Source: Eledone cirrhosa (Eukaryota). Taken from it: a DNA stretch of 64,000 bases. The stretch is taken from contig OZ024752.1 in the NCBI GenBank assembly GCA_964016885.1, forward strand, positions 22,878,001-22,942,000, given 5' to 3'. The notes under the pieces were generated by a model, which did no database searches, was not told the origin of the DNA, and saw nothing but the letters and a program-made list of their open reading frames with translations. Position 1 is the stretch's first letter, and each line of letters opens with the position of its first letter. Both the position numbers and the translations under genes were made by a program. Positions 9,256-64,000 of this stretch are shown here, in pieces.

Positions 9256-9626
9256 TAAAACACACTCAGTTTGGTTTGGGTTTGGCAATCAATGTTTATC
9301 ATTGACTGACCAACAGTTAAAAATATAGATACAAAATATAGTCCCTCAGAGTTCTTTCATCACACACCTGTGACGTCATAAGTGATACTATTATCTTTCC
9401 TCCTATTGTATTGCTGTAATGTTTTCTTATTCTATTTTATTTATTTATTTATTGTTGTCTCTGTTTGTGCATGCATTTGTGTGTGTGTTTTCTGTTTGGT
9501 GTGTGTTTGGTCTGAGTCTGTATGTGTTTGTATTCTAACTTTGGTTACTAGTGAGTGTTTATGTGTGGTTGTTTTTATTGTATCTGTGTATATTTATTTA
9601 TATTTATCTTAGATCATTAATAGATA

Positions 9627-12600
9627 CTAGCAGAAGAACCGCCTTCGGGCGGTTTTCTGTTTAGCATGTATATTGTGCATATTGATATATGCAAATATAT
9701 ATGCATATAGATATGATATGTAAATTGAAAAGTAAATTGACAATATGCACATAAACTGAACAAAGACTGTGTTACACTTACTTCTGTAATCAGTAAAGTA
9801 ATCCATGATACATTTAAAAAAAGGGCGATAATGAAGATGGAAAAGCAATGAAACTGTTGACGGAAAATGTTCATGAATCTTCACTTGAGAATGTCGATGG
9901 GAAGTTTCAAGCAGTGAATTTGATATTAGATGCTGCTGGTATGAATGAATGAATGAACTACATTTACCAATATGAAGAGTTGACCTTCGCTATATTGTTG
10001 TTTTACTGTATTCACATATAGACTTCTTAAGTTTTTGTAGTGTCCCTTTTCTAGCAATTAAAAAGAAACTGAAATGCATTTCAACTAAAAGAGAGTGATA
10101 GCTGTTTCACATCACTGTAGAATTTCTTTGTAGACATAGTTGTTAGCAAACAGACCCATTTCATTTAATATTTTTGTATTTTCTTTTTTTGTAACTCATG
10201 ATAATGCAACATACATCTGACCATGTGAGAAGAGTTGTGTTGGTAGATATACACCTATCTTTTCAAATGCCTGCTCTTGTGCCTTGTTGCATGTAAGGGC
10301 AAAGGCTGGTTTGTTAGGAAATTGCTTGCAAATAAAGGTGAAAGGGAACTCAGGCTCTTGAGATACATGTGGTATCCTTGGGATTAGCAACCTCGTTCCA
10401 GCATTGGAACCCAATGCCACTTCAGCTTCAATAACTGATGATGATGTAGTGTGTACCATTGCAATGCCCGTTTAGAGGATGCAGATTTCTCAGAAGCATG
10501 ATGCAACTGCCTTTCTTCAGTTTAACAGTTTAAGTATGTGTGTTGGGAAGCCTGATGGAATAAGTTTGTTGATGAACTCAATTGGATATTGCAGTTCATT
10601 ATCTACTGTATCAGAGCTTCTGTAGATTATTTCATGACCAGGGAACTTGTTGACCATGAACTCATTCACCAATCTTGCTGCATCATTTGTTGGAGTGATA
10701 ATGGCTCTATTTGCAAGCCATAGTGGGTTTGTGTAGTTTCCTGGAAGAATTGTATACACAAAATCACACAGTCCAGACACATTACCATATTCCAGACAAG
10801 TTCATTTGGCAGAGGAATTGTGAATACACCTACAGTTGGTACAGTTAGAATGTTACCATTTCTCACATCAAGAAAGTAGTTTGCAAACTGTCTTTCATCA
10901 GAATGCTCTGCATTAAGTAACCGTTGATTGGTTGTCATCTCCATGGTTTCCACATAGTCCCAGAGATAGGATCTCTTGATGGTTGCTTCAACTATTTGTA
11001 GTCTAGCACCATGAAGTACAACTGGAAGAATTTGCTCACTAGATAGTAATACTGTTAGACCACCAAATGGCTTTTTGCAATCTCGAATATCTTTGCAGCT
11101 CCTGTCAAGGCATTCAAAGATATGCTTATGTCCCATACCTATCTCATCAATGATTAGCAGGTCAGCTTGCTGCATAAGTTTACCTGTGGCATCCCTCTGT
11201 GTGAAGAAGCAAGTTGATTCAGCGGTCACAATGAGAGGAATCTTACACTTGGAATGAAGAGTTCTACCTTTGTGAAGCAAAGTGGTTGCTATTCCAGATA
11301 TGGCAATGGCAAGAGCAATTTTTTTTTAGATTGGAGGTAATCCAATAGGATGTTTATGACATAGGACTTTCCTGTGCCTGCACTCGCATTCAAGCAGAAA
11401 ATTCTACCTTCATTTTCATTTACAGAGGTGATTACTTTGTGAAATATAATCAGTTGCTCAGGATTCAATGTTGGCAGAAGTTTATGTTTGCTTGCAGTTG
11501 GTGTGTATTGAAATCAGTTTCTGCCATAAGAACGCTGTTGATTTCTGGTATGGCAACAATAGTTGGGTCTGGTCGAGGAAGTCCATAGTTGGCATGAATG
11601 TCTAAGCCATCATGTTGAAGTCTTTGTTGGATCTTCTGTAGAACAATCTGCACGGTTTGCATGGACATGACTTGCTCATGACGTTCATGCATGATATCCT
11701 CTGCAGGAAAATCCTTCCATTTCTCCCAGAACTGCAGAGGGTCATTTGGCATGCAGTACAATAAAATGGTGCAGAAGATCTCTCGCAGCTAAGGACCAAA
11801 CGTAATGGATGAGGCCTCTTCCATAGCTTTGTCTTTTTCTCCATCTTCATCCATCAGACCGAGTTTCCTGCATGCTTCTTGGAATGTTGGAAATTCAACT
11901 CCTTCAATTGTCCTCAAATCTTTGTATGAAGTTGACCCAGCCTTGTGATGTAGGATCATCCTGAGATAATATAATTCAGATTGATGTCTACTGAGAGATA
12001 CTGTTGGAATGCGTCCAAGAGATTCACTCATAAATTGTTGATCATCAACCAGATGTCTCTTTTTTTCTTCTTTGCCACTTTTTGTTTCTCCAAGTGAAAT
12101 ATTTAGGAATGTCAATATACAATACGTTTTGTGCCAGTGGGTCTCTAATATTCAGTTGAAAATATTCCGTCAACTTAGTCATTGGCTGTCCCCTAGAAAC
12201 AATACTTTTTTCCTGCCCTCGCTCATACACGACCATTTGTTCCCCAGGTAAATGGCAAGGCAATGTTTCTGATGATGTAATGCTTCACTGGTTGAGGTGC
12301 ATTGATATAGGTCTCAATCTCATTTTGGACATGGACACAATTTCCTTGATCATCCTTAATAGTGAAAGTGATAAGTACTTAACAGCCTTGACACTGGACA
12401 ACCTCACAATTGATGTGGCACTGATATCTCAATGAGAGGAAAGGGTTGAATGGAACAATCCAACAATTATCAACTGTAAATTCTTGACCTTTAAGTTGGA
12501 TTGTATGGGTGTGACCACCATGCTGTCTATCCCTTCTTTTATACTCCGGAAAGAAATTTGCGGCAACAAATGTGGTTTGTCTGAATGCCTTAGCATAACT

Positions 12601-12850
12601 TTTTGAGCAATGGCCTTGTTGTCCTAGTCCTTCCATACATGGGCACATCATATTAGCTTGTCCACATGAGCCATGAATGTTGCAGTATGTGATGATCTTA
12701 TGCAGAATTGGTCTCTTTATCAGAAATCTCACAGTACATACCTGATCAATGGCATCTGAAATTTGGAGCTTTCTATCTTCAGCCATTAGCAGCTGAATAT
12801 GAGCATGAGTGAGGCCTTGTTTCTGCCACTCTATTGTAGCAGAATGAGCC
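9627..12850 (-). mobile_element. Decayed, 5'-truncated autonomous Helitron (Rep + PIF1 helicase pseudogene)
   Basis: Rep motif IEWQKQGLTHAH, Walker A ASAGTGKS, LIIDE, and FSHGQMYVALS across frameshifted ORFs. 3' hairpin aaccgcc-N4-ggcggtt (9637-9654) and terminal CTAG (9627-9630). Confidence 0.92.
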
Positions 12851-13289
12851 ATACACGTGCATACACGGAAACACCCGCCATGCATATACATACATGTATA
12901 GATAAACACGCGCACACATACATAAACCCATGCAACAGATGTACCCACACACATAAAAAAAGATATATATGTGTGTGTGTATACATATAATTATATAAAT
13001 GTATATAAATATACACACACAAATACGTATATAGCGCACGCACACACATACCTACAGGTAAATACACATATGTTCACCAAACGTACGTCAACCAAAACAC
13101 AATGTACACATATACACACCTTACATACGTGCAAACACGCATACACGTACAAACACAAAATACACATATACACATAACCATATACACATATATCAGTATA
13201 TATAATATAATATATACACCTATAACAAATAAAAGCATATATACGAACAAGAAAGTATACGTACCTTCACAAAACATACGGGTAAGGTA

Positions 13290-15220
13290 TACTTACCTAT
13301 ACAAATAAGTAATGGTATAAACATAAAATATACTTAGCTACCACATCAAGACGTAAATTATCCGCGTATTGTTTGTACTATCCGTTAGGGTATAATGTGG
13401 GGCTGTAATACAGGAAAGTTTTGTGCAATTTATGTTTACAAGCCGAAATTGCCTCAGATTTTTTGTGTAAGATGTGGTCATTGACATAGAGTATTTCCAG
13501 GGCTTCAGCGGCACAAAGTTCGCATGGTCTCCCCACTTTACCCCGAAGGATCACAAACCCAATTTCGCCAACAACCCCTCTATTCGGCTTATTAACCCTA
13601 CGAAGTCTGATTTAGGTAGACTTAGTAAAAGGATTTTAGATAGAATTATACCTGAAATTAGAAGCTTGGCCCCTCTTGCACTGTGGAATAATTCTTTCAC
13701 AGTGATTGATTCGGTCAATGGCATATGCAACAAGGAACATTGCCGTTTTATCCAATTCAACATCAATAACTACTACTCCTCCATCACTTTACCACTTCTT
13801 CTTAGAGCTATCAATTTCACTAAAACACTCACAGTGGTTAAGGATTTCGAAGTTGATGTCATCCTCAATGCCCGTAAGTCGGTGATTAATTTCGACGACT
13901 CTATTTGGATAAAATAATCTAATAGTACCCCATTCGACGTGAGTATGTGCGCCAGCGATTCAGTGGAGGTTACAGATCTTATCGGCCTTTTCCATCTTTT
14001 CTCTATCAAGGAAGAATTCCCCAATGTGGGGGGTGGTTAGTACCGTGATGACGGTCTTTTGACCATGACAAAGTGTGGTCCACGCGCTTGCGACAGGTTC
14101 TGAAAAGAACTCACAGCCTTCTTTAAAGGCTTCAACCTCTCCATGCAGGTTGAGGCCAACCTCTCGGTCGTTAATTACCTCGACGTTACCCTCAATTTAT
14201 CGAATGGCTTGCACTACCCGTAGAGAAAGCCGAATGATACGCTTAATTACATAAGTAAGCATTCTAATCATCCTGCCAGCATAACCAAGAACCTGGTAAG
14301 AAACGTTTCTTTGAGGCTTTCCCGTCTATCTACAAATGAGCATATTTTCAACGACCATTCCACATATTACAATGAAGCTCTTGCTTGGAATGGATTTGTC
14401 AATAAGTTAGCATATACTAAGTATAAGCATAGAGCAAGGAAAAATAGATCCCGACGCATTATATGGTATAACCCACCATATAATATGGAGGTGGCCACAC
14501 CATTAGCTAAGATCTTTCTCTCCCTTATTAAGAAGCATTTCCCGTCAGAACATAAATATAATAACATTTTTAATAGAAATACCATTAAAATATCTTACTC
14601 CATGACTCTTAACTTTGCACATAACACTGCTTCAAATTTAGCTAAATTACCTAGCCGTAGGAACACGTGCAACCCGGTAGCTAGTACTAACTGTAATTGT
14701 AGGAATTGGGTTGACTGCCCCCTTTCCGGGAAATGCCTCTCCAGTAACATTGTCTACAAATGTAAGGTCGAAACACCGACATCACGTAGGGCCTACATAG
14801 GGTTAACCGCCAATAGATTCAAGCAGTGTCTTTCCATGCACACCCATTCTTTTCTTAACCTTTTAAGAAGGAATATACCGTCACTTTCAGCTTATATCTG
14901 GAGTCTAAAAGACAACCACACCCAATATAGGTTACACTGGGAGATCCTAGCTAAGGCTAGCTCGTATAACGGAAATAAAAGACCATACAATCTTTGCGCC
15001 GCTGAAGCCCTGGAAATACTCTACGCCAATGACCACATCTTAAACAAAATATCTGAGGCAATTTCGGCTTGTAAACACATATTCCATAAAACTTTCCTGT
15101 ATTACAGCCCCACATTATATCCTAACAGATAGTATGAACAATACGCGGATAATTTACGCCTTGATGTGGAAGCTAAGTTTATTTTATGTTTATACCATTA
15201 AACATTTGTATAGGTAAGTA
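13290..15220 (+). mobile_element. Penelope-like retroelement (RT + GIY-YIG), decayed, with inverted 5' pseudo-LTR
   Basis: RLINPTKSDLG, YRDDGL (14041) and IVYKC...YIGLT. 13290-13465 is the reverse complement of about 15046-15220. Confidence 0.9.
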
Positions 15221-16517
15221 CAGGGTGCGAACGATATTTGTTTGCAAGATTACTGTCTAGGAAAAAATAACACAGTAGTTTTATTTTTTAAGATTTATTT
15301 ATCAAACTTGGATCAGTTCGTCTTCATGACTTGTTCTTTCGATCTCACTTGATAAACCCGCCATTGGCTTTGATGACAGCCTCAAGGCGGCCCCGGAACC
15401 GGCTACAGGCCTTCGTCACTCTCCCTCGACTTAGGCCACTAAGGCACTTGTGATCCTGGCCTTCAGGTCGTCTTTCGTATTGCAGCTAGATCTGTTGGTG
15501 TCTCGTTCCACTGCGCCCCACACAAAGAAGTCGAGAGGGTTGCAGTCAGGCGAGCTGTGAGGCCAGATCTCAGGTGAAGTGTGGTCGACGAAGTTCTCTG
15601 ACAGCCAGGCTTGGGTCTTTCGGCTGGTATGGCAAGGCGCTGAGTCTTGCTACCACACGTACGGCCTACCTGCAGCTACCTGATCGATCCAGGGCTTTAC
15701 TACTTCGCTCAGAACGCGGATGTAGCCATCGGTGTTCAGCTTGAGGCCCTCAGGGAAGAAGTGAGGTGGCATGACGTCACCTTGACTGCTGACGACACCT
15801 AAGACCACTGTTGACACTGGAAACTTTGTCTGCATGACTCTGGGCACGTCTTTGGATGAGACAGCGAGCCACCTGTTGTTCTGGGAGTTGATCTTCTGGT
15901 CTTGGCAGAAGTTTTTCTCGTCGGAGAAAAACCACAGCATGTCTGGCTCCAGTGGGTGTTTCAACTTGTTGATCAGCTTCTTTGCGTGCTTCAGTCGCTT
16001 TTCTTGCATCGCCTTTGACAGAAATTGTCCTTTCCTCATCTTGTATGAAACGTAGCGAATGTCTTGTACCACCAGCCTAATGAGCTTTTCATCCACGCCT
16101 TTCTCCCTTGCACGCATCGACTTGCTAGGTTCATTGTTGATGATATCCTGAACTTCTGCAACGAACTCGGGCGTTCTGAAGACGTCAGATCGTTGATCAT
16201 GTGTTTTCCTCTCTGATGTTGCTTCGTAGTCGAATCCTGAATCCTCCAATTCCTTTCTGACCTTTTCCACCATTTTCCTGCTGACGCTGAGAAAGTCTGA
16301 AATTTCCTTATTTGTCCTCCCGGTGCGGATTCCAAGAAGAACTCTGTGTCTCTTCCACAAATTTGGAGGTTCAAAATTATTCATAATCAATTATTCTGAA
16401 AATAAATAATGTAAATATAGTCACTGTTTTTGTGAAGACAAGAGTGACAACGGAAGTAAAAAAAATTTGCATAAAATTAGCAGTTGAAAATTGCGAACAA
16501 ATATCGTCCACACCCTG
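15221..16517 (-). mobile_element. Tc1/mariner DD37D (maT-type) transposon, full-length, transposase inactivated
   Basis: TA TSDs and 27-bp imperfect TIRs cagggtg..acgatatttgtt.gcaa. FSDEK...QDSAPCH...SPDCNPLD gives 37 residues between the 2nd and 3rd Asp. In-frame TAG at 15650-15652. Confidence 0.92.
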
Positions 16518-16708
16518 TATATATATATAAGTACATATATATATATATAAGTATATATATATAAGTATATATATATATATAAGTATATATATATAAGTAT
16601 ATATATATATATAAGTATATATATATAAGTATATATATATAAGTATATATATATATATAAGTATATATATATAAGTATATATATATATATAAGTATATAT
16701 ATATATAT
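16518..16708. repeat. (TA)n-AG compound microsatellite
   Basis: tatatatataag repeats. Confidence 0.95.
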
Positions 16709-16729
16709 GTAGACTTTGCACTTTCCTGT

Positions 16730-18640
16730 TGACAAGTGTTTTTAGGGTTAGGGGTTGCCCATCTCTCGCTACTATGTAGCATCGCGCTCCTCACACAGGC
16801 ATCATATAACCTTTCGTATGCAGGGAGAAACCCTTCTTCGTCAGTAGAGGAAGCAGCTCCGTAAACTTCTGATCCGTCCTTATTCTAAATACTATGGCCT
16901 CGGAACACCCCCCTCCCATGCTAATCTGATCTCTTAGGTACCGGAAGCTATCCACCACTTTTATAGCACCTGCCTGCATTTGAAAAATGTGTTTATCAAT
17001 GCGACTTCTACTGTCTAATTTCCCTGTACATCTACTGCATACGTATTTCTCCCTACCTGTTAATTTGCCTGCTATGCCACTACATCTCTTGTGTACCTAG
17101 GATCTGCATTGTGTGCATTTTATAGAATTTATGCCAGTTCCTTTTCTGCATATCGAACATGGTCATTTCCTTGACGGAATCAGAGTTTTGTCCTCTTTTC
17201 TACTCATCAACACTTTTGTCTTAGCTAGGTTCACTCTCAGTCATCTTGCTTCCAACTGCTGTTTCCATAACCAGAATTTATTCTCTAGATCCTCTAGTGA
17301 TTCTGCTATAAGAACCAGATTGTTAGCATAGAGAAGTTCCCATGGACAGCCAGTCTTAAACTCCTCTGTTATGGCTTGGAGGACTATAATGAACAAGAGC
17401 GGGCTGAGGACCGAACCTTGATGTACTACTACCTGTATCTGGAATTCCTCACTAAGCTCCATTCCAAGCCTCGCTTTACTGACAGCACCTCTGTACAAAG
17501 TTTGCAGTCCTCACAAGCCATTCCTCAACACCTAGTTTCCTTAGGGACCACCAGATGACAGATTGGGATACCCTATCAAAGTATAGTGGCATATTTTTCT
17601 CTGAGAACCTCTCTTGTAATTGTCTCACCAAGAAGAGGGCATCTGTTGTACTCTTCCCAGGCACAAAACCAAACTGCATCTCATCTAGTTTGACCCTTTC
17701 TCTAATTAGTTGTGCTAATATCCTTTCTGCCACTTTCATAACCTGATCCATCAGTTTTATACCCCTATAATTGCTCCTCTCCAGAGCATCCCCTTTACCT
17801 TTGTAGCAATTTATGAGAATACTGCTGCACCAGTCTTTGGGTATGACACCACCATAAATAGCCTGATTGATGATGCGTGCAACCAGTTTAGTGCCTACGT
17901 CCTCTGATGGCTTCAGCATCTCAGCAACTATCCCTGATGGTCCAGCAGCCTTACCATTTTTCATTTCCTTAATCGCCTCTTGGACCCTATATTCGTCAAT
18001 CTCAATAGCTGGTCCCTCTGTCAGATCTACTGAGGGTAATTTCTGTCTAAACCATTCGTTCTCCACATTCATCAGTCCCTTATAATGACATTTCAGGCCT
18101 CCTTTTTCTGATCATTTGTGACACTAAGTACACCAGCATTATTCTGGACACATTTATCTCCAACAACATCCTGATTTGTATTTACACACTGCTTTGCAAT
18201 GTGGAACACTGCACGCCTCTGACCTTCCCGTCGCAGAACATTGGCAAACCTCCTACTCTCTGCCTCCCTGCGTGCTAAGTACACCTGACGTCTAGCTTGG
18301 GGAGCATAGGCAGAGATGATTGTCAGTAGTCTCTTGCCTACAACTAATCTAAGCTTAATTATTCGATTACTAACTCGAACTACCTCTATTGTCTTATTGA
18401 TCTATCTCTCAGCCAGGAAAATGCCTACTCCCCCTAACCCATCATCCTTACCTACCCAGAAAAGCTTATAGCTAAGATGTTTGCCTACGACTAGTCTCGC
18501 AGAGGTACCTCTCCAGCTCACCTCTTGCACGCAGCACACATCCACCTGCCTTCTCTCCAGCATCTCCGCTATTTCAGCAGATCTAACTCTGAGAGTGCCA
18601 ACATTAAGTGTTGCAACTCTGAAATGCAACGTCTTCATAT
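16730..18640 (-). mobile_element. RTE-clade LINE, decayed and internally deleted (APE + RT fragments)
   Basis: VATLNVGTLR/CCVQEVSWRG (APE), KAAGPSG, QFGFVPGKSTTDA and HQGSVLSPLLF. APE jumps to the RT-proximal region near 18290. Confidence 0.9.
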
Positions 18641-18905
18641 TTTGTTGTTCCTATATACTTGTTGCTGTGCTAATAATCGTTTTGGCATTGATACACTGGT
18701 TGGATGCCCTTCCTAACACCAGCGCCACTTTACAGCATGGACTGGGTGCTTTTATTTGTGCCACCAGCACTAAAGAGGATGTCTTACTAGACTCAAGGGC
18801 CCTCTCTACCCCTCTATTTTACAGCATGGTCATAAAAAAACCCCACTTATTGACACTCATGGCACACACACACACTCACTCACACACCAACACTCATGCA
18901 TACAA

Positions 18906-39662: not shown

Positions 39663-39797
39663 GCTCCTATCCAACAGTTGGCAGATAAGATTGCTGGTTA
39701 TTTTGTTCCAGTAGTTGTGGTTGTCTCACTTCTCACTCTTTTTGTTTGGATTATTATTGGCTATCATGATATTAAGTTGATTGACAAAAACTTTAAG
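39663..39797 (+). CDS. ATP7: ATP7 exon: [18 protein letters not shown]...IDKNFK (TM5)
   Basis: ttttcag|GCT acceptor and AAG|gtatat donor, 135 nt, phase 0-0. Confidence 0.95.
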
Positions 39798-42485: not shown

Positions 42486-43363
42486 ACATTGTTTGAAATA
42501 TCATAACAGATGTATCTCTTAGTTTTAGGTACTTGTCTTGGAAATGGCTGAATAGTTTAACTGGATTTGAAAGTCTAGATATTTCTTTGTTCTTTTGTAG
42601 ACTACTTTAGACTTTGGGAAAATACATCACTTCTGTTTACATAGCTAAAAAAAAAAAAAATAGAATGTTGAGACCGTTCTAAGATATTCTATCTAGTTAA
42701 ACGTGTCTTCATTGACTCAGTTTATATTTAGAAATAAATCCTCTTGGATCTTCAATAGCAATAAATATATTGAAAAATCTAGAATAAGTAGGACAGGCGG
42801 CCATCATTATCGTTATTTCCACTATCACGACCAATAAAGAAATCATTATCATTATCTTAATTAATTTTGTTGCTCAGTTTTTGTATACTTTTCCATGATA
42901 ACGTTGATAAAATGTGTAACTCGTACAAAATTGAATTAGACAACCAACATCATCATCATCATTTTACGTCCGCTTTTCCCTGCTTGCAAGGGTGGGACAC
43001 AACATATGATATTTAATGAAGATGATATGATATTTAATGAAGATGTAAATTTGAACTTTGGTTTATCATATTTTTTTTTTCATTGAACTGCTTCATCAGT
43101 TGTTAGCTGTCGGACACTGCATCCTTCAAAACTTCCATGCTTCCTGAAATTCGCCAACACTACACCTGATATTTCCCTCTCCATACACATGCATGTGTGT
43201 GTGTATCATGACTCATACACTGTTCAGTTTCCTGACTTTTGTACAGTATTCTATGCACAATACACAATAATTTTCATTATTATTATTATTTTTCATTATG
43301 TTTATTCTTGATGTTATGTAACTTCTCTAATTAATGTGTCATAAACAATTTGCTGATTCACAG

Positions 43364-43555
43364 GAAGATGGTCCTTTGACAAAACATGAGTTGATATTCC
43401 AATATGCTTTCCAGTATGCAATTACTGTTTTAAGTATTGCATGTCCCTGTGCTTTGGGTTTAGCTACACCCACAGCAGTAATGGTTGGTACAGGGGTTGG
43501 TGCCACTAATGGCATTCTCATCAAAGGTGGTGAACCACTGGAATTGACCCATAAG
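43364..43555 (+). CDS. ATP7: ATP7 TM6 exon, copy A (canonical): [64 protein letters not shown]
   Basis: tcacag|GAA acceptor and AAG|gtaagc donor, 192 nt, phase 0-0. Contains the CPC motif. Confidence 0.95.
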
Positions 43556-44346
43556 GTAAGCTGTAGGTAACAATATGAAGTTAGATGATTTATAGAAAAT
43601 TTTTCTTTACCTTGTTAACACTGAATTTCTTTATTTACAGATACATCTACTTTCCTTTCAAGATACAAACATTTAACATTGCCTGTGTGTGTATACATAT
43701 GTGTCCATCAGCTACATATATCATAGGTTGAGGCAGTTTTACTTAGTCTTGTATAACTGGACAGCTTTAGTGGTATGATAGCCTTTTAAATGATCTTACA
43801 GATATGGATATCACATATGTTCAAATTCCTTATTTAGATCAGGGTTGGTTATATAAATACTCATAGACATAAGCTGTATGTTGAGAATGTAAAGTAAGAA
43901 TCTCATCTGTTACTTATATTCATCATGCAACTTCTCTTCTTTTGGGAATTTTAACCAAGGGTGGGTTTAAGGTTAGTACTGCAAACATACAACTATATGT
44001 TCATTGTAGGGAGACGAAAGAAATATTAATGTTGGAAGTATTTTGGCCCACTTTGTACCATTACTGATATCTGCAACAATATAGGAAGGTGGGTTGTAAC
44101 AGTCAGACATCTACTGTTGCTATTAATGATGATATCACACAGAAGGTTTTAGTATAGCTTCTGTGTGAGACTTCTTTTAGTTCTTTTATTTAACTAATAT
44201 TTATCTCTCGGTTGTTTACAGGTGGATAGCAGTGAAATCTTGAAAATATCTGATCTTCAACACTTCCTAGCATCTCTTCTTGGGCAAATATATCGTTATT
44301 AAGGCTTGAAAATATTGAACTGACATATTTCTTACTCCATCTTCAG

Positions 44347-44541
44347 GCTAATGGTACATGGCACCATCGTCTTCGTTTGATATTTACTGCTGCTGTCCAG
44401 TACTCACTCACAGTTTTAACAGTGGCTTGCCCATGTGGTCTTGGTCTCGCCACACCCACAGCCATTGTTGTAAGTCTTGGGGTAGGCTCCAGTATTGGCC
44501 TTCTTATCAAAGGTGGGATTCCTTTGGAAAATATATCAAAG
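44347..44541 (+). CDS. ATP7: ATP7 TM6 exon, copy B (divergent duplicate, candidate mutually exclusive exon): [65 protein letters not shown]
   Basis: Polypyrimidine tract with cttcag|GCT acceptor and AAG|gtaaga donor. 195 nt, no stops, phase 0-0, CPC retained. Confidence 0.8.
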
Positions 44542-45056
44542 GTAAGATGGTCAGTACAGCATAACCAAACGCTGGTGATGGGCTTACACCATTTTCTTTT
44601 GCTATGGTGAATGAAGTTGCCTATCCTCTGCTCTTACCTCAAATTCCTTTCAAAGAAACTGGAATCCTCAAACCCATCAGCTATGTTGTTTTTTTTTTGA
44701 AGCTTTCAATTATTCCAACAACCTTTAAGAGAAGAAAAATTATATTTTCTCATCCACCCCACTGATTAGATTTGGGTTTTTAGAAATTCTTTATTAGCCT
44801 AATTTTATATTTATTTATTTATAAAAGTATTTTCCCAAATGTTTGTATGCTGAAGGTGAAGGTTATTGATGTCTCTGTCAGTAAACATTTTTGTCATCAA
44901 CAAATATATTGTTATGTCATTGATATTTCATTACAAACAAGATTATTATTTGATGGGTTTTGTTACCATGAAATCATATTAATAAAAAACAAAGCAGAAA
45001 TGTTAAATAACTTATTATCGGTATGTTATTAATAATGGTTTTTAAATTAGGCAATT

Positions 45057-45256
45057 NNNNNNNNNNNNNNNNNNNNNNNNNNNNNNNNNNNNNNNNNNNN
45101 NNNNNNNNNNNNNNNNNNNNNNNNNNNNNNNNNNNNNNNNNNNNNNNNNNNNNNNNNNNNNNNNNNNNNNNNNNNNNNNNNNNNNNNNNNNNNNNNNNNN
45201 NNNNNNNNNNNNNNNNNNNNNNNNNNNNNNNNNNNNNNNNNNNNNNNNNNNNNNNN
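45057..45256. other. Assembly gap (200 N)
   Basis: Run of N; the round size suggests a placeholder of unknown true length. Confidence 0.99.
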
Positions 45257-46185: not shown

Positions 46186-47045
46186 TCTAGGGCGGGTAAA
46201 ATTCCCGAGATCCATGGACGAGTTCTCTGCAGCGGTCTTTGTCCCTCATTATCGCTGCCATGTCCTGCGTGTCCAACAGACCAGTGTCTGTCCTTAGGGC
46301 ATCAACATATGTTACCCCTTGGTCTTCCTCTTCCAGTGTGTCCATGTAGGAGCTCCCACAGGAGCACTGAGTGCAGTGTCCAACTCTGGATGTCGGTGAG
46401 CATGTCCAGCTAACCTCAGTCTCCTCTGTGTCACTTTTGAGCTGACTTTTGGGAGGCTCTCATACAGCTCTGAGTTCTTCATCTTCAGTGTATACTGATT
46501 AATGTTCAGAGCCATCCTCAGCATTCTCGTGTAGCACCCAGCCACCATCTGAGTGAGTTTCTTGGTCAGTGTCCAAGTCTCAGACCCGTACAGCAGCACA
46601 GACTCCATCACAGCAATGAAGAGGTGGATTTCAGGTCTTTACGAAAGTCCGACTTCCACACCGATCTCAAGCTGTGGCACGCCGCCCAGGCCTTGCTCTT
46701 CCTCTCAACCACATCATCTTCCGTATTCCCAATCTTTGCTCCCAAATACAGGAAGTCCTCAACCAATTCTAGCGGCTTCCCGCCTACATTAGTAATCCCC
46801 TCTGGCTTCTCAACATTCTCTACCAGATATTTTGTTTTAGTCTCATTCATTCTCAGCCCCACACTCATCAACACAGTCTCAACCTCCCGCATCAAATCCT
46901 CTGCCTCCTTCACTGTATTTGTCACCAAAACTATGTCGTTTGCAAATTCAGCATCCGATATCTTTTTCGCCTTAACTCTCCTGCTGTGAGCCGGTGCTAG
47001 TGTAAAGCCAGAGTTCAGTGCAAGGCGCATACAATAGTCCACTAC
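46186..47045 (-). mobile_element. RTE-group LINE 3' portion, frameshifted
   Basis: EFANDIVL (decayed FADD), FLYLG, VLLYGSETWTL and RRLRLAGH. Confidence 0.85.
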
Positions 47046-47454
47046 GATGTTAGGTAATTCTGAAGGAAAAGCAAAGGAAAAAAGAGTTCTCTATGTATAG
47101 AACAGAGCTATTTAATTAGAAAGTGAATAACACAAATATAACTACTCCATTACCAAAGGTTCTGGATCACAGACGATAACAATATTCGTCTGGATCGGTC
47201 GTCAGACAGAGATGTTATAGATAAAAGATATGAAATGAGATTTAAAATCTGTTAAAAATTGGAAGTGAGGCTGGAAAAATAAAGGGAAATATACGTAAGG
47301 AAAGAAGGGTAAGAAAAATAATATATAGAAAAGCAAAATATATAAAAAAAAAAGGCAGATGTGTATTAATGCTCTGTTCTATACATAGAGCACACGTTTT
47401 TTCCTTTGCTTTCTCTTCGGAATCACCTAACACATATATTTTTATATATATTTT

Positions 47455-50400
47455 ATGGGTAGATAAGGTAATTGACGTAAATAGAGTGAATGTCAGAATA
47501 ATTAAATTAAGACTAGTTCTAAATATAACTACTGTGACAATAATATCTGCTTATGCACCCCAATCTGTGACGTTATAAAGGACAGGTTCTATGAGATGTT
47601 AATGCATACTACCTCCCAAATAACCGACAGCAACTACTTAATTATTGCTGGCAATCTAAACGGTCACATTGGACAACATAGTGATGGCTATGATGGAATC
47701 CATGGAGACTATGGGTTTGGTAATAGAAATGAGGAGGCTTCAGAATCCTGGAATTCTGTGACGCAAATAGCCTAACTATCTGTAAGACAAACTTCAAAAA
47801 ACGTGAAAACCACTTGATCACCTATAGATTATGTCCTTACTAGTGTCTGTTGTAAACACTAAATCCCTCCCCCGTGAAGAATGCACCTTCCAACATAGCC
47901 TAGTAGTTAGTGACCTCATAGTCAGAAAAAGACGTACTCGACGACAGAGGAGGCCTACCTTGAGGAGAAGAATATGGAAGTTGAAGGACCCCATAACCAG
48001 TGACAAATTTAAAAGCTTATTACTTGATGCCTTTGACAATAAAGAAGAGCCATTAGAGACGTGTCATATAGAGGAACAGTGGCAATTCTTGAAAGTGAAC
48101 CTGCTGAAAGCAACGGATGAAATCTGTGGCTGGAGCAGACATATAGGCAGGAGGAGAGTAACGTGGTGGTGGAACAGTAAGGTGGAGGAGACAATCAAGG
48201 CTAAAAATGTAGGCTTGGAAAGTATGGCAGGATGGGGTAAGTAGAGAGCACTATCAAGTGGCCAGGAGAGAAGCTAGGAGACAAGTGTACCTTGCAAAAA
48301 GGGAAGCAGAGGATAGAAAGTTCAAGCATGTTCTACAACGTGAGGACCAAAAACGTGAGGTGTTCAGGATTGCTAAACAATGTGTCAAGGATAACCGTGA
48401 TATTGTCGGGGAGAAGTGTCCGTAATGATAACGGTGTGCTTGCCCTCACTGATACTGATGAGAAGTGTCACTACGAGAGACTATTAAATGAGGAGAATAA
48501 ATGGGAAAAAGATAGTCTGCCCCAAATCGATCCAATAGAAGGACCAGCGGTGCAAGTTAAAGGTAGTATAATAAGTAAGGCAATCAAAGATATGAAGACA
48601 GGCAAGGCAGCTGGGCCTTCGGAGATAGTTGCTGAGATGTTGAAGGCATCTGGTATGGTGGGACACACTAGGTCACCCGTATAGTTAACCAAGCAATACA
48701 AAATGGGGTCATACTGAAAGACTGGCGTAGCAGCATCATCATTAACTGCTACAAGGATAAAAGGGATGCTCTAGATAGGGGAAACTATAGAGGCATTAAG
48801 TTAGTTGACCAGGTCATGAAGGTCACAGAAAGAGTTATAGCGCAACTAATCAGAGAGCGAATTGATCTAGATGAAATGCAGTTTGGGTTTGTGTCAGGTA
48901 AAAGTACCACAGATGCTCTTTTCCTGGTACGACAACTACAAGAGAAACTACCTAGCTAAAAGTAAACCCCTTTACTTAGTTTTTGTAGACCTGGAGAAAG
49001 CCTTTGACAGAATCCCCTGCTCCATTATCTGGTAGGCTCTTAGAAAACTAGGTGTAGATGAATGGCTTGTGAGAGCTATACAAACTATGTATAATGAAAC
49101 AGTCAGTAAGGTTAGAATTAACAATGAATATTGTGAAGAATATAGTGTAAAAGTTGGCGTTCATCAAGGCTCAGTCCTTAGCCCCCTCCTATTTATTATT
49201 GCCCTTCAGGCTATAACAGAGGAGTTCAAGACCGGCTGCTCATGGGAACTCCTATACGCAGATGATCTAACGCTCATAGCTGAATCAATAGCTGAACTAG
49301 AGAAGAAATTTCAAACATGGAAGCATGGCCTAGAATCAAAAGGCCTTAAAGATAACTTGTCTAAGACTAAAGTTCTAGTTTGTAGAAAGGAAAATAGGGC
49401 ACAGATGCCCTCAGGGAAATGGCCATGCTCAGTGTGTAGGAAAGGAGTAGGCAGAAATTACATTTTATGTCCCAAATGCAAAGTATGGGTACATAAAAGA
49501 TGTAGTGGGATCACAGGTAAACTATCTAAGAACGTAGACTTTATATGTGGCCAATGTTCAGGTGCAATAAGTAGCAAGTGTCCACAGGATACTAGCTCCT
49601 TCTATTGCCCAGATGGTTCTATAGAAAATAGTCGACACTTTCCGTTACCTGGGTGATGAAATCAGCAGTGGAGGAGGGTGTTCTGAAAGTACAGTTGCCA
49701 GAGTCAGAATGGGATGGAAAAAGTTCAGAGAGCTTATAGTGCTGTTGGCCACAAAAGGTTTCTCTCTAAAAATGAAAGGCAGATTGTATGATGCCTGTAT
49801 AAGAACAGCAATGCTACATGGCAGTGAGACATGGGCATTACGTGCAGAGGACCTGCGCAGACTGGAAAGGAATGAAGCATGCATGCTCCGTTGGATGTGT
49901 AATAGTGATATACGTGAATGGCAAAGCATAAATGAACTAAGTGAGAAATTAGGAATAAGAGGGATCAGATGCTGTTTACTTGAGAGAAGACTACGTTGGT
50001 ATGGTCACATGATGCACATGAAAGACGACAGCTGCATAAAAAAGTGCAGGGCGATCAAAATTGATGGTAGTTACGGAGTAGGTAGACCCAGAAAAACCTG
50101 GGCTATCTGATAAATTCCGACCTTACACACTTGTTCTTCTCTAAGACAATGTCACTGGACTGAGATCTTTGGCGCTATGCAGTAATACAGAAGACCCGCC
50201 TTGCCTATGTACAAAGTGAAACCTACATTCAGTAGGCACCTCCTAACCAAATATACACCCCAATCCACTACCTCTACCCTATCCTCCCACTCCCACCAAC
50301 ACCACCCTCTCTCTGTAAAGTTGGTACCACAACATCCAGTTCAAATAAATGAGATAGAGATCGTGTAGGTGTCACAACAAAAAAAAACAAAAAAAACACA

Positions 50401-50620
50401 CAGTCCACACTGTAATGTGGTCGTGTAGGTAACAGTAAAAAGTTTCCAGTTCCACACTGAAAATGTGATTGGAGTTAGGAAGGGCATCCAGCCGTATAAA
50501 GCCTGCCAGATAGTCCTATACAAGCGAGACACGGTCACCCGACCAACCTTGCCTCAAGTGGCACAACACCCGTCTAACCCATGCTAGCGTGGAAGATGGA
50601 TGTTAAACAATGATGATGAT
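47455..50620 (+). mobile_element. RTE-clade LINE, decayed, nearly full ORF with 3' UTR and (GAT)n tail
   Basis: APE (TIISAYAPQ), RT (ELLYADD), PHD-like finger and GRPRKTW; many frameshifts. Confidence 0.9.
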
Positions 50621-50655
50621 GTACATATATATATGTGCATGCATGTATGCATGTG

Positions 50656-50692
<37 letters not shown>

Positions 50693-51309
50693 GTATGTGT
50701 GTATATATTTGAATGTGTGTGTATGTATAATCTCACTGTAGAACAACTCTAATCCATGAATATGAATACAATAAGACCAATTTACAATCCATTACTATAA
50801 CTAACTAAAAACATTCAATACAAACATTAACTAAAATATAATTTAACATATGTAATGGATGGGAAATCAATAACTTTGATATTCTCCACACATACAAATT
50901 TGAACTCTACAGAAACTATCATCGCATTACATCCTCCATAATACTCTAACATATTCGCTTAAAGTGCTTGTATTTTATGTAATACCTTGCCATACAGTAT
51001 TTATATATGCCTAATACCTTTGCTTGTTTCCTCCGTATATATGACTAACGCATGTGCAATCTCTACACGCTTGAATATATACTTTCTAAATGCCTCTTTA
51101 ATTATTAGACTATTCTCTTGTATTATCTGTTGCATGTATTCCACTCTGTGCTTTTAATTTTAATTTGAATTATTGTACAATTCTCGTATAATATATGTCG
51201 CATCCATTACACCCTGTAAATACGAAACTGTTGTTCACAACATCAATATATATGTATCTATATGATTGTTCAATTGAATAGGAGGTTAATTATATGTACA
51301 AACATTGAT

Positions 51310-51361
51310 AATGCTCCGATGACTCCAAACTAAAGTTTGGAAGAAACAATTGTCAGCGATT
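51310..51361 (+). ncRNA. Degenerate type I hammerhead motif (family 3; core U4>C)
   Basis: aatgct-CCGAUGA-c(uccaaac-uaaa-guuugga)a-GAAA-CAAUUG-UC-agcgatt. Confidence 0.6.
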
Positions 51362-52149
51362 AAATGATTTGCACATAACTTTAATATTTGTGTAATTTAT
51401 ATTACTGCTCTGTAAAACACCTGATGTTCTTATATTGAGCTATTTATCTTACTGGTAATAAGGTAGTAATAAATTACTCACCTTTCCTGTTTATAGTTGT
51501 TTATAGTGTAGTATATACATAGCTATAAATAGTATCATTATTATTATATATATTTTTATATATATGTGGTTACTCGTGTATGTATATATGCATATATATG
51601 TGTATATAATATATGTGAGTATATATATGTATTTGAATATGTCTGTATATGTTTTTATATGTGTATGTCTATCTGTATATATGCATATGTATATGTGTAT
51701 GTCCGTGTTCATGTATGTTTGTATATATATATGTATATATACAGGTATGTATATATACATATATATATATTTTCCTTTTATCAGAATGTGTGTATGTGTG
51801 TGTATATGTATGTACACATATGTCTTTTTCTATATTGCTATATATTTTTACTTTTATCAATTATTGCTGTATTTATCATTTCACTAGCTTCCACAACACA
51901 TTTATTTTTTACCCTAGTTTTCTTTTCCCATGCTGTCTCTCTACGAAGTCATCTATTCTCTTCCTCTCTCTTACACTATTATTAGTGTTGTTGTATTTAT
52001 CATTTCACTGTCTCTACGAAGTCATCTACTCCCTTCGATATCCTAATATTAACATTTCGCCTTGTCTAATATTTTGCCATGAGATGCTATAGGCCATGAT
52101 GGCTACCTATCTCACAATTTCCCTCCCTCCCTCCCACCACCATAGCCTA

Positions 52150-55100
52150 TTCGACCAATCAAACCTCAGCATGCCCTCCCCCCATTACCAACCCCAACAA
52201 ACTCTGCCATTTCTACTACCTACCTCTCTCCTCACCCGTTACAGCCCCAACACACCCTGCCATTATTACCACCACCACTGTTCTTCTAGCCCTGAATTTT
52301 CCTTCCGTTATGTATGGATGAGCTGAGAATAAATGGAGCAACCCCGAATTAATAAATGAAAATGAATATGAATCTGCAAGCTACCAAGCACCCATGTGAA
52401 GCTTCAATTCAGAGACAGGAAACACACGCACACCCCTGCAAAAATCGATCCCTCCCCACGAATGTTGACAAATTGCCCAAAACTCCGAGTTGGTACCATC
52501 AATGTAAGCACAATGAAAGGAAGAGCAGGAGAAATCGTAGAGATGCTAGAGCGAAAGGAAATTGATGTATGCTGTGTGCAAGAGACTAGATGGAGAGGAG
52601 AGTCTGCTAGAGTCCTTGTAGGAAAATGTCAGTGCTACAAATTTTTCTGGGTGGGCAATGACGATGGGATGGGTGGTGTAGGTATCCTACTAGCTGACAA
52701 GTGGGTAGATAAAGTAATTTCAGTGAACAGGGTGAATGCAAGAATCATTAAACTCAGACTAGTCCTGAATAAACAATTACCACAATAATATCAGCTTACG
52801 CACCCCAATCGGGGTTGCCAGATGGACTTAAGGATAGGTTTTACGAGTCCCTAATGCACACTACTGCTCTAACAAACGACAATGACTTCCTAATCATTGC
52901 AGGAGATTTTAACGGACATGTAGGTAAACACTGTGACAGCTTCAATAGAGTCCATGGAGGCCATGGGGTTGGCACAAGAAATGAAGAAGGATTCAGGCTT
53001 CTAGAATTCTGCGACGCCAATGACATGTCGATATGTAACACAAACTTCAAAAAACCCGACAACAACCTGATCACCTATAGATCGGGGAAGCATTCTAGTC
53101 AGATAGGATGTGACATGGATGGTCGTAAACACAAAAGCCTTCCCTAGTGAGGAATGTACCTCCCAACATAGCTTAGTTGTCAGCGACCTCACGGTCAGAA
53201 CTAGACGAACCTGGAAACAAGCCAACCTGGAGAAGAAAGATCTGGAAGCTGAAAGACCCCTCAGCCAGTAACAGATTTAAAGATATTTTACTCAACGCCT
53301 ACGACAGTAAAGAAGAACAGATAGAGACATTCAATGTAGAAGAGCACTGGGAGTTCCTAAAAAATAACTTACTAGAGGCGACGGATGAGGTCTGTGGTTG
53401 GAGTAAGACCACAGGCAGGAGGATAGTGACTTGGTGGTGAAACAATAAGGTAGATGAGGCAGTTAAGGCCAAGAGACAGGCATGGAAAGAATGGAAGAAC
53501 GGGGGAATTAGAGTACATTACTTAGAGACCAGGAGGGAAGCTATGCGACAAGTATACTTAGCTAGGAGGGAAGCAGAGGATAGAAAATTAAAGCATGTTT
53601 TGCAACGTGAGGACCAGAAACAGCAGGTGTTCAAGATTGTGAGGCAGTGTGTCAGAGAGAATTGTGATGTCATTGAAGAGAAGTGTATCCAGAATGATAA
53701 AGGTGAGCTTGCTCTCACAAGTGTTGAGAAGAAAGATGCGTGGAAGAGCCATTATGATAGATTACTAAATGAGGAGAATGCATGGGAAGAAGAGACCCTA
53801 CACCAAGTAGACCCTATAGAGGGGCCGGCAGTACAAGTCAGCAGCAGCGTAGTAAGTAAGGCAATCAAAGATATGAAGACGGGGAAGGCAACCGGTCCAT
53901 CGGGTATAGCTGCCGAGATGCTGAAGGCATCTGGGTCTGTAGGTCACACTATAACCACACGTATTGTTAACCAGATAATACTAGAACGTGTCATACCAAA
54001 GGATTGGTGCAGTAGCATCATTGTCAACTGCTACAAAGGTAAAGGTGATGCACTAGATAGAGGAAACTATAGAGGTATAAAGCTGGTGGACCAGGTCATG
54101 AAAGTAACAGAAAGAGTTATAGCACAGTTGATTAGGGACCGGGTGAAACTAGATGAGATGCAATTTGGGTTTGTGCCAGGAAGAGGCACCACTGATGCCC
54201 TCTTCCTTGTGAGGCAGTTACAGGAAAAGTACCTAGCTAAAAGTAAGCCACTCTACCTGGCATTCATCGATCTCGAGAAACCCTTTGACAGAGTTCCCTG
54301 TGCTGTAATCTGGTGGGCTCTTAGAAAACTAGGAGTAGATGAATGGCTTGTGAAAGCTGTACAAGCCATGTATAGGGGAGCAGTCAGGAAAGTTAGGATT
54401 AGCAAGGAATTTAGCAAACAGGTCAGTGTCCACCAGGGCTCTGTTTTTAGCCCTCTCCTATTCATCATAGTCCTGCAGGCAATAACGAAGGAGTTTAAGA
54501 CCGGATCCCCATGGGAACTGCTGTATGCAGATGACCTCGCACTTGTAGCTGAATCTATGGTATAACTAGAGAAGAAATTCCAAACTTGGAAGCAGGGACT
54601 AGAAAGAAAGGGTCTCAAAGTCAACCTGACAAAGACTAAGGTCCTTGTAAGTAGACGAGAAAACAGAACCCAGATCCCCTCAGGGAAATGGCCTTGCTCA
54701 GTATGTAGAAAAGGTGTAGGTAGGAACTCCATTCTCTGCCCCAAGTGCAAACAATGGGTACACAAGAGATGTAGCGGATCTCAGGAAGCTTAACTTAGAA
54801 TGTAGCAGCTGTGCTGGGACAGCAAGCAGCAAACAGCCACAGGAAACAAGTACCACCAATCTCTGGGAGGGCTCTGTAGAAACAGTAGACAGCTTCTGAT
54901 ACCTAGGTGACCGAATTAGCAGCGGAGGTGGGTGTTCGGAAAGTACAATAACTAGGGTAAGAACGGGATGGAAGAAGTTCAGGCAGCTACTGCCACTGCT
55001 AGCTGCAAAAGGCTTTTCCCTCAAAATAAAAGGCAGACTGTATAATGCGTGTATACGAACAGCAATGTTACATGGTAGTGAGACCTGGGCACTGAGTGTG

Positions 55101-59038: not shown

Positions 59039-59156
59039 AATAGTCTAATTGATGTTGTTGCTGCCATTAAATTATCAAAAATGACTGTAAGACGAATTAG
59101 GATAAATTTTTTTGCTGCATCAATTTACAATTTATTGGGCATCCCAATTGCAGCTG
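59039..59156 (+). CDS. ATP7: ATP7 exon: [40 protein letters not shown] (TM7, YN motif)
   Basis: tttcag|AAT acceptor and GCTG|gtaagt donor, 118 nt. Confidence 0.95.
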
Positions 59157-61237: not shown

Positions 61238-61340
61238 GTGTCTTCATGCCAGTTGGTCTGTCTCTAAGACCATGGATGGCTTCTGCTGCCATGGCATTAT
61301 CTTCTGTTACTGTTGTATCCTTATCCTTACTCCTTAAATT
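61238..61340 (+). CDS. ATP7: ATP7 exon: [34 protein letters not shown] (TM8, MxxS motif)
   Basis: cttcag|GT acceptor and AATT|gtaagt donor, 103 nt; translated by hand. Confidence 0.95.
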
Positions 61341-62139
61341 GTAAGTATCTATAATATTGTTCTGTGTGTGTCTGCGTATGTATGTAATGTATGAATGTAT
61401 GTATAAATGTATGTAATGTATGAATGTATATAATGTATGTATGAATATATGTATATATGTATATAATGTATGTATGCATTCATGCATTTCTGGTTTTATT
61501 ATTTTTCAAATTTTACCATCAGAGAAAGAGAGCTGGTTTCTAACACAGAAACAGGACTCTTTCATTGGAATTTAGAAATCAACTAGTTAATTATGTACAT
61601 GTGATGAACTGATAATTGAAATGGTTGTGAAAATGGTGGAAATTATGGCTAGAGATATTGGTAAATGGAGGTGGTGGGTATGGGGTGGTAAGGAAGAGGG
61701 CAACAGTGAAGAATATAAATTTTTATTGAACTAAAATTTCTTTTTAAAATTGTTAATCATTTTATGCATGTACTTTAGTTCAATTAACTCTTTAGCATTT
61801 AAACTGGCTGTATTCAGCTAGAATTCTTTCACCTCTTTCTGTTCTAACCAGGTATGACTGGCCACTCATACTGATGTTATGGTATTGTTCTCAAAATAAA
61901 TAACATTGAATTCTTTTCTGTGAGATTAACTTATTCAGTGATAATAAATAAAACACAGGGTCAACAATTTAATAAGATAAGGATTTAATTATTACAACCA
62001 ATCATTAATGATAAATCATTAAATGTTGCAATCTCTAGAGCTATGAAATTAACTGATGTTTTTATTAGGGTGGTTAATACCAAGAAGTGAGGAAACAGAA
62101 GTATTAAATTAATTGTTTAAATTTCTGATGATAATAATA

Positions 62140-64000
62140 ATATCACATTATGGATGCCTATAACAAAGCTACCCACAAAACAAAACAATAATAAATATAC
62201 TAAGAAAACAATGTGGAAACATAATGGACAAGAACCAACAAGGCCTACAAAAAATAAATTTTATACACAGATGTCCTTACAACATAATATTCTTTATTGA
62301 AATTGCGACCACATGAGTAAAATGCAACAAGTTAAAAATCAGCCGCAACACTACACAGAGTTTGAAATACTGGCAAAGTCACAAAGAATCCGGAGATATG
62401 AAAAGCGGCAAAAGTTTTTTCAACTAAATCAGTTGTTTCACTCCAACCCAAAACGACTCTACCAAGAACTTAATAGAAACAAAATAGAAGTCAATGTAGT
62501 CCCAAAAGTAAAAGAATTGGAAGAGTTCTGGAGAAGAATATGGGCAGAAGGAGAAAATAAATTACCATGCACAAAGCTAGAAAGAACAGCAAACATAGCA
62601 GACAAACAACTATGGGAGGATATTACAGCAGATAATGTGTCTATCACACTGAGAGGGGAAAGCAACTGGAAGGCACCAGGATATGACAAGATCCCCAACT
62701 TCTGGTTAAAATATTTAACAGGGACACATGAAATGGTGGCAAAGGAATTTAACAAAATTCTGATAGAACCAGAAAAAAACACCTGACTAAGGGGAAAATG
62801 ACCCTGATACCAAAAAATAATGACACAGCAAACCCCCCAAAATACATGCTTGCTTACTACATACAAAACCTTAACTTCAATACTATCACAGAAAATAACC
62901 AAACACCTGGAAAAAAACAACCTGCTCCCAGAAGAACAGAAAGAATGCTGCAGAGGTTCATATGGATACAAAGACCAGTTGTTAATAAATAAAGCCATAA
63001 CTGAAAACTGCCAAAAAAACAAAACAAAAAAACCTCAACATGGCTTGGATTGATTACCAAACAGTGTTCCCCATACACAACACACTAGCCATGAATAACA
63101 TTTATCAAACATGCCATGAGTAACAAACAATTCTGCTGATACAAACAAAAGATAAAGCAATAAAAACAACCTATACCAATCAACAGAGGCATATTCCAAG
63201 GAGACTCCCTATCACCACTGCTTTTCTGTCTAACATTAACACCACTATCTGCAACACTAAACAGAATTGTGCACAGGTATAAATGCTACAATAGAAAAAT
63301 TAACCATCTCCTACATATGTATGATCTAAAGCTGTATGCTACAAATGAAAAGCAACTCTAAACACTGCTCCAAACTACACAAATTCACAAAAGAAATAGG
63401 TATGAAATTTGGATTAGAAAGAATGTGCTAAGACAGCTCTGAAGAGAGGGAAACTAGTGAAAAGCAGTAATATCATGTTAGATAAAGAAACAGAAATAAG
63501 ATAACTAGATCAAACTCAAACATACAAATACTTAGAAATCAATTAACTAGATAAGATTCAATACACACAGACGAAAGAAAAGATTAGAAAAGAATACTAC
63601 AGAAGAATTAGGTTAATACTCAAAACTGAACTAAATGCAAAGAACAGGGTGATTGGCATCAACACTTTAGCAGTCCCAGTAATGAGCTACAGCTTTAACA
63701 TTTTGAACTGGACACTAAAAGAGCTAGCTGAAATAGATAGAAAAACAAGAAAAATAATGACTGCATTCAGAATGCACCAATCCAAAATCAGACATAGAAA
63801 GATTATACCTACCAAGAACACAAGGAAGAAGGAGCCTTATGCAACTAGAAAACTCTTATAAAATAACTACTGTAGGACTACAAAAATACCTAATAAAAAA
63901 CAAAGGAAAGCTAATACAAATAGCCATGAAACATGAACAAAACAAAACAACTGTTCCCGGTCTTCAAGGAAGCCAAAAAATTAAAATCAGAAAATGGACT
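62140..64000 (+). mobile_element. Decayed R4/Dong-like non-LTR retrotransposon (RT region), running off the window
   Basis: NWKAPGYDKIPNFWLK, EEQKECCRGSYGYKDQLLINK, INHLLHMYDLKLYA and INTLAVPVMSYSF; preceded by (TAA)n. Confidence 0.75.

Follow-up and report, generated by a model that had tools for sequence, protein, structure and literature searches.

A conserved, diverged copy of the M4 exon in an octopod ATP7 gene as a putative mutually exclusive alternative

The window analysed here, a stretch of 64,000 nucleotides from contig OZ024752.1 of the 3.0-Gb Eledone cirrhosa genome, contains the greater part of an ATP7 gene, encoded on the + strand (Table 1). One of its exons, here called exon A, matches residues 927-990 of Octopus bimaculoides ATP7 (P0137) at 100% identity, and the remaining ATP7 exons in the window are 63-100% identical to the same protein. 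The host is therefore an octopod, which bears out the ATP7 identity and the cephalopod origin proposed in an earlier sequence-only reading of this DNA. Exon A also matches residues 958-1017 of Xenopus ATP7B (7SI3) with an E value of 6e-25. The long introns of the gene hold fragments (9600-18700, 46500-54500, and 61900-64000) that, judging from their translations alone, resemble reverse-transcriptase retroelements and a helicase-bearing element.

Table 1. Features of the Eledone cirrhosa ATP7 locus, in positions of the 64,000-nt window.
Feature	Position	Strand	Basis
Upstream constitutive exon (M3 region), end phase 0	39663..39797	+	89% to O. bimaculoides ATP7 residues 882-926
Exon A (default): luminal loop between M3 and M4, M4 bearing CPC, P-domain linker	43364..43555	+	O. 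bimaculoides residues 927-990, RNA
Perfect 11-bp hairpin in A-B intron	44135..44168	+	-18.2 kcal/mol, z -4.4, 0/200 shuffles
B acceptor region: branch-point candidate CTGAC (~-23), pyrimidine tract, acceptor	44320..44346	+	Sequence
Exon B: duplicate of A that has diverged but retains CPC; unannotated	44347..44541	+	Sequence; orthologous ORFs P0003, P0004/P0123/P0124
Predicted exon-intron hairpin burying B donor	44492..44557	+	Folding: 44492-44508 pairs with 44541-44557
Intron stretch after B, conserved in related organism; second hairpin ~44577-44623	44542..44634	+	Differences versus expectation
Assembly gap, 200 N, probable site of missing P/N-domain exons	45057..45256	.	P/N exons unfound; 3' exons found
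M5 exon with YN motif, common to both predicted isoforms	59039..59156	+	Sequence match to ATP7
M6 exon with MxxSS motif, common to both predicted isoforms	61238..61340	+	Sequence match to ATP7

Exon A (192 nt, 64 codons) is followed after 791 nt by a second, homologous exon, B (195 nt, 65 codons). Both are free of stop codons, have AG acceptors and AAG/GTAAG donors, and are phase 0-0, as the sequence-only reading had described. Global alignment gives 38 identical residues in 67 columns, close to the ~36 of 65 claimed before, and the remark that many third codon positions differ also agrees with the counts: identity is 41/62, 48/62, and 31/62 at first, second, and third positions, and 18 of the 38 identical residues are written with different codons. 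A tblastn search with the exon A segment finds B in the window at E 2e-20. Neighbouring, homologous, in the same frame, similar in length, stop-free, and flanked by canonical splice sites, A and B have the sequence properties of a mutually exclusive homologous pair. The additional claim that no other exon is duplicated stands for tandem copies, none of which was found in the window for any other exon among the 16 segments tested, but not for a 97-nt, 95% identical inverted partial copy (2322-2418, -) that repeats the beginning of the large exon for the metal-binding domains (353-449, +). This copy sits in the next intron, where exon-intron dsRNA is possible, a potential ADAR substrate.

An assembly gap adjoins B, which could suggest an assembly artefact, an allele, or a fragment of a separate paralog. 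In each of two DNA runs, however, one 1821-nt contig covers 43263-45050 with 0-1 differences, and a single contig from raw data across A and B argues for true adjacency rather than misassembly, although both runs come from one sample and may themselves be the source of the assembly. Searching the Eledone genome with B returned only two places, B and A, which are 65% identical as DNA, and B occurs in other sequence clusters as well; an artefactual, allelic, or paralogous origin is thus very improbable, as the sequence-only reading had held. The gap itself most likely hides the P/N-domain exons. Neither the DKTGT exon nor any P/N-domain exon (O. bimaculoides residues ~991-1286) has a match in the window, and three queries did not find the P/N-domain exons in the whole assembly, in a search whose positive controls, the M5, M6, and last exons, were all recovered. 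In all, the assembly lacks ~295 ATP7 codons, those for the P and N domains; its gap begins 516 nt after exon B, and the DKTGT, HP, and GDGxND motifs are absent from both window and assembly. Automatic annotation of this sequence would yield a broken ATP7 gene. The missing stretch leaves room for further duplicates, so B might open a larger duplicated block, hidden in the gap and with P/N exons of its own, an alternative catalytic half. This is improbable given that the genome search met no duplicate P/N or M5/M6 exons and that the length of the N terminus is all that distinguishes the annotated Octopus ATP7 isoforms.

The use of the two exons was followed in X1 and X2, two samples from one study of a related organism, which are taken as RNA runs from their behaviour, that is, from a spliced contig. 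Long contigs cover exon A exactly in both (X1, 2910 nt, depth 17.9; X2, 2525 nt, depth 86.9). In X2 the contig has loose ends at 43362 and 43557. The first is the 3' end of the upstream exon, 39663-39797, joined to exon A, and the second is where the DKTGT exon begins, after A. Since this contig passes from the upstream exon through A to the DKTGT exon, A is included and B is skipped in ordinary RNA. The annotation agrees, as all eight named Octopus isoforms carry A and none carries B (9/9 cluster members listed). Among 291 proteins, the string CPCGLG is confined to B, four relatives of it, and a JGI protein; no other full-length protein of the 291 compared has the B motif, one cluster being covered for 15 of its 20 members.

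Exon B is covered in each RNA run by one short contig (X1, 295 nt, depth 3.9; X2, 374 nt, depth 4.9). In both runs these contigs extend over 44403-44634, unspliced through the B donor and at least 93 nt into the intron. Contig cleaning can lose a rare spliced branch. The contigs of the two runs, which drop rare variants, show B spliced at neither end and list no joint of A to B (43555>44347), a comparison of low power; by the same token, gaps in the coverage of the A-B intron and of the B acceptor in X1 and X2 prove nothing. The B contigs are evidence for the presence of unspliced B RNA, or of DNA, and not for the absence of spliced B. Of the two-isoform splicing that the sequence-only reading had proposed, the joining of A without B is seen in X2 RNA, while a splice into or out of B is found neither in the contigs nor in any annotated isoform. 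The B contigs of both samples begin at exactly 44403, inside the exon and at neither an AG nor a splice site. An internally started, PINA-like transcript from this position was rejected, as B contains no Met and coding constraint on it would be needless.

That constraint is apparent from other copies of the exon. A search for B elsewhere found it unbroken in two clusters of open frames from Logan contigs, which look genomic. With B alone as query, P0003 scored 116 bits and P0004 with P0123/P0124 scored 90 bits, the next among the 120 matches listed scoring 56. Across the exon the two relatives are 94% (P0003) and 72% (P0004) identical to B. In both, LQ precedes the exon and VR follows it, the same as in the window, so that the acceptor and donor positions are kept; beyond the donor, an indel shifts the tail of P0003 and that of P0004 is unrelated, so the sequence past the B donor is not coding. 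No further copies were found among the 18 of 108 matches inspected from a short-protein search, nor among the 14 inspected of 150 listed matches from a representative search, in which P0003 and P0004 rank top by construction. A metagenome scan brought up 80 loci with identities of 44-64%, and by that measure none is B-like.

In a tree of the 55-residue core (31 rows), the three B copies group as a clade of their own (95/100), with a stem of 0.89 that lies within an unresolved animal ATP7 group; the bootstrap is rough and not settled. Over the same core, A is identical at 53/55 positions to Argonauta, 52/55 to Sepia, 52/55 to a chiton, and 44/55 to a mammalian ATP7A, and B is identical to A at 34/55. 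The analogy with the vertebrate ATP7A/ATP7B split drawn in the sequence-only reading is accordingly loose, B being further from A than A is from that mammalian ATP7A. The pattern is one of quick change after duplication, followed by constraint.

Constraint is also visible at short range. In the related organism sampled as RNA, the five listed differences in 44403-44541 fall in four codons and are all synonymous, including a serine switch from TCC to AGC. Its B piece has 12 differences in 232 nt, seven listed and five unlisted, so that no more than 10 can lie in the 139 nt of B, where neutrality would predict 36 (Poisson P 3e-7), under a neutral rate which assumes that all 12 differences in A are synonymous (7/7 listed are) and neutral. 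The first 93 intron nt after B have 2 to 7 differences and a 19-letter gap, against ~24 differences expected. Their conservation suggests a regulatory element, and it also warns that the neutral rate is perhaps overestimated. Purifying selection is found on both exon copies, from a partial list of differences. Because B occurs in two other clusters, forms its own long-stemmed clade, and shows only synonymous changes among those listed, the comparison indicates that it is under protein-level constraint, and the view of B as an old duplicate kept by selection is upheld.

A contrasting account treats B as a former working alternative that has fallen silent and is slowly decaying, the contigs over it then coming from pre-mRNA or DNA. 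It fits the absence of B from every annotated or assembled isoform compared, the contig depth of only 3.9 and 4.9, a one-codon indel between the window copy and P0003/P0004, and the faster divergence of B, which matches P0004 at 45/55 core positions where A matches Sepia and the chiton at 52/55. Decay nevertheless sits poorly with the constraint seen against a close relative, where the 47 C-terminal residues are identical between B and P0003 and the listed changes are synonymous, and with a frame and both splice positions that are intact in all three copies. It is accordingly unlikely, if less so than a larger duplicated block.

The splice signals raise the question of how B is kept out. Its acceptor has a pyrimidine fraction of 0.82 and an AG-free zone of 41 nt, whereas the tract of A is weak (0.53, with an AG-free zone of 115 nt). 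As the B acceptor is the better of the two, B needs repression. Folding offers a candidate at the other end of the exon, where a predicted hairpin of 16 pairs, with three G-U pairs and one U-U mismatch, covers donor positions -1 to +16 at predicted pair probabilities of 0.93-1.0. The 81-nt donor stretch of B folds at -26.9 kcal/mol (z -3.58, 0/200 shuffles), against z 0.09 for its equivalent in A, and has the lowest energy of 14 donor windows, some of whose donor positions are off by 1-2 nt; the hairpin was chosen as the best of 57 windows scanned. At the letters that the codons fix in P0004, five of seven outer-stem positions must pair, including changes from G-C to C-G and from U-G to C-G, and two are broken, one of them also in the window. 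Controls match this covariation score in 7/154 and 84/3733 cases (2-5%), and a stem register slid by 3 scores better (six must pair, one broken), so that covariation support for the hairpin is suggestive only.

Other structures lie nearby. The second hairpin after B has a z of -2.8 (5/200 shuffles), and the unexplained perfect hairpin in the A-B intron, with 267 nt around it that are single-copy in the genome, scores as well as the B donor hairpin. An 8-bp hairpin over the B acceptor was rejected (z -0.05, not kept in P0003). A selector/docking pair was not found in the sequence up to the gap (45056), with flank alignments at p 0.10 and 0.55 and a best duplex of -32.4 against a shuffled best of -29.1 +/- 1.9, and Rfam returned only two weak matches, far below the gathering score. 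Neither frameshift nor short-distance steric exclusion would bar joint inclusion of A and B, since both exon lengths are divisible by 3 and the 791-nt intron, with its branch-point candidate at -23, puts that branch point well beyond the 50 nt from the upstream donor within which steric exclusion acts. Two transmembrane-helix exons that are both in or both out would, though, flip the topology of a membrane protein (PMC5740500), and A and B are for this reason expected to be exclusive.

The same signals would also suit an unproductive use of B, in which the acceptor is spliced, the donor stays shut, and the read-through message is truncated or degraded, tuning the level of ATP7. The sole RNA over B is unspliced at its donor in 2/2 runs for at least 93 nt of intron, and a strong acceptor, a donor predicted to be buried, a conserved downstream intron, and a stop at ~44608 are what such a device would have. 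A poison or terminal exon, however, needs neither synonymous-only change nor a CPC motif nor a P-domain linker, the three B copies have tails of different frame and length, and contig cleaning may have removed a rare spliced branch. Unproductive use is a somewhat stronger contender than decay, but still doubtful.

The reading preferred here, with a probability of roughly 0.6, is that B is an old tandem duplicate which a hairpin keeps repressed and which only rarely replaces A, the two exons being mutually exclusive; its use would give a second pump whose M4 is altered. The 3' end of B would pair with the first 16 bases of its intron and so hide the B donor from U1; where the hairpin is opened, in some tissue, stage, or condition, B would replace A. 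Donor-hiding stem-loops of this kind, in which the end of the exon pairs with the 5' splice site and inclusion is lowered, occur at MAPT exon 10 and SMN2 exon 7, which are cassette exons rather than duplicates, while the structure at ATP7 B is a predicted one. The donor hairpin as a putative switch of a duplicated exon is new in this analysis, with weak covariation support. In U2AF1, as in the octopod gene, the copy with the better acceptor and the longer pyrimidine tract is the one repressed (exons 3 and Ab; PMC5224494), but repression there acts at the branch point and tract, where in ATP7 the predicted donor hairpin is the lead.

Substitution between tandem duplicated exons has been described before and is enriched among ion transporters (PMC9741552). 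Like the mutually exclusive homologous exons of channels and transporters (PMC9741552; PMC5740500), the ATP7 pair is neighbouring, in frame, of similar length, and part of a folded membrane domain. Those systems use one exon at a time, which is seen here for A, with B known from sequence and contigs unspliced at its donor, and they differ further in that the swapped piece is here the ion-binding helix of a P1B pump. ATP7 is not named in the main texts of the two papers (0 occurrences in PMC9741552 and PMC5740500), and search listings of the open-licence literature showed no report of a duplicated or alternative CPC exon in a cephalopod ATP7.

To our knowledge, most invertebrates have a single ATP7. 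Four Artemia ATP7 models (P0127, P0272, P0273, and P0275) contain the CPC region twice, as identical copies 234 residues apart, which resembles a segmental or assembly duplication and not an exon pair. P0439 is a full-length, strongly diverged animal ATP7-like protein on a long branch, perhaps a second paralog in another group.

A pump made from the B isoform would still carry Cu(I), its metal-binding domains and M5/M6 ligands being those of the A form. In P1B-1 pumps the CPC motif lies in M4 (PMC8896786; PMC9433437), and CPC, YN, and MxxSS are needed for transport in AfCopA (PMC9433437). CPC is kept in B, YN and MxxSS are encoded in exons common to both isoforms, and the CxxC domains of P1B-1 Cu(I)-ATPases are likewise present for the B isoform. 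It would resemble animal ATP7 and other P1B-1 pumps (7SI3, PMC8896786; AfCopA, PMC9433437) in CPC of M4, YN of M5, MxxSS of M6, and N-terminal metal-binding domains, and differ from them in CPCG, IVV(S/G)LG, and a narrower Cu/Cd model margin. By reading of a partial listing, the animal proteins compared have CPC(A/S) and VMV(G)TG at these places; the family models give B 55.7 bits for Cu against 41 for Cd, and A 73.7 against 42.5. With the three motifs kept or in shared exons, a change of metal is unlikely, and a metal switch was rejected in view of the shared ligands and the small shift in family-model scores. An NGT sequon in B was likewise rejected as a feature, being absent from P0003. B is changed in its luminal loop, in the outer part of M4, and in the cytosolic linker from M4 to the P domain. 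Such novelties in the loop, the M4 face, and the linker would likely alter coupling, rate or turnover, or release, for the same metal.

Where the hairpin might open is a further step. One tentative possibility, about as probable as an unproductive B or slightly more so, is a second octopod copper pump obtained from the single ATP7 gene by opening in one tissue or condition, which would exchange the copper-binding helix with its linker and so tune transport for bulk copper delivery. Candidate settings include the haemocyanin-making branchial gland, cold, copper load, and ADAR editing of the stem. Haemocyanin of adult coleoids is made in the branchial gland (PMC3945787); that B might serve haemocyanin copper supply is a speculative idea.

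Across the molluscs compared M4 is nearly fixed (52-55/55), which sets off the divergence of B. Here a second and conserved M4 has retained CPC while departing from A at 21 of 55 positions, which makes it a natural experiment on the coupling between ion binding and phosphorylation in pumps of the Menkes/Wilson type. The predicted hairpin offers a concrete, testable switch, and the absence of B from 8/8 Octopus isoforms implies that annotation may overlook a regulated isoform. In copper-blooded animals, B gives a direct test of haemocyanin supply.
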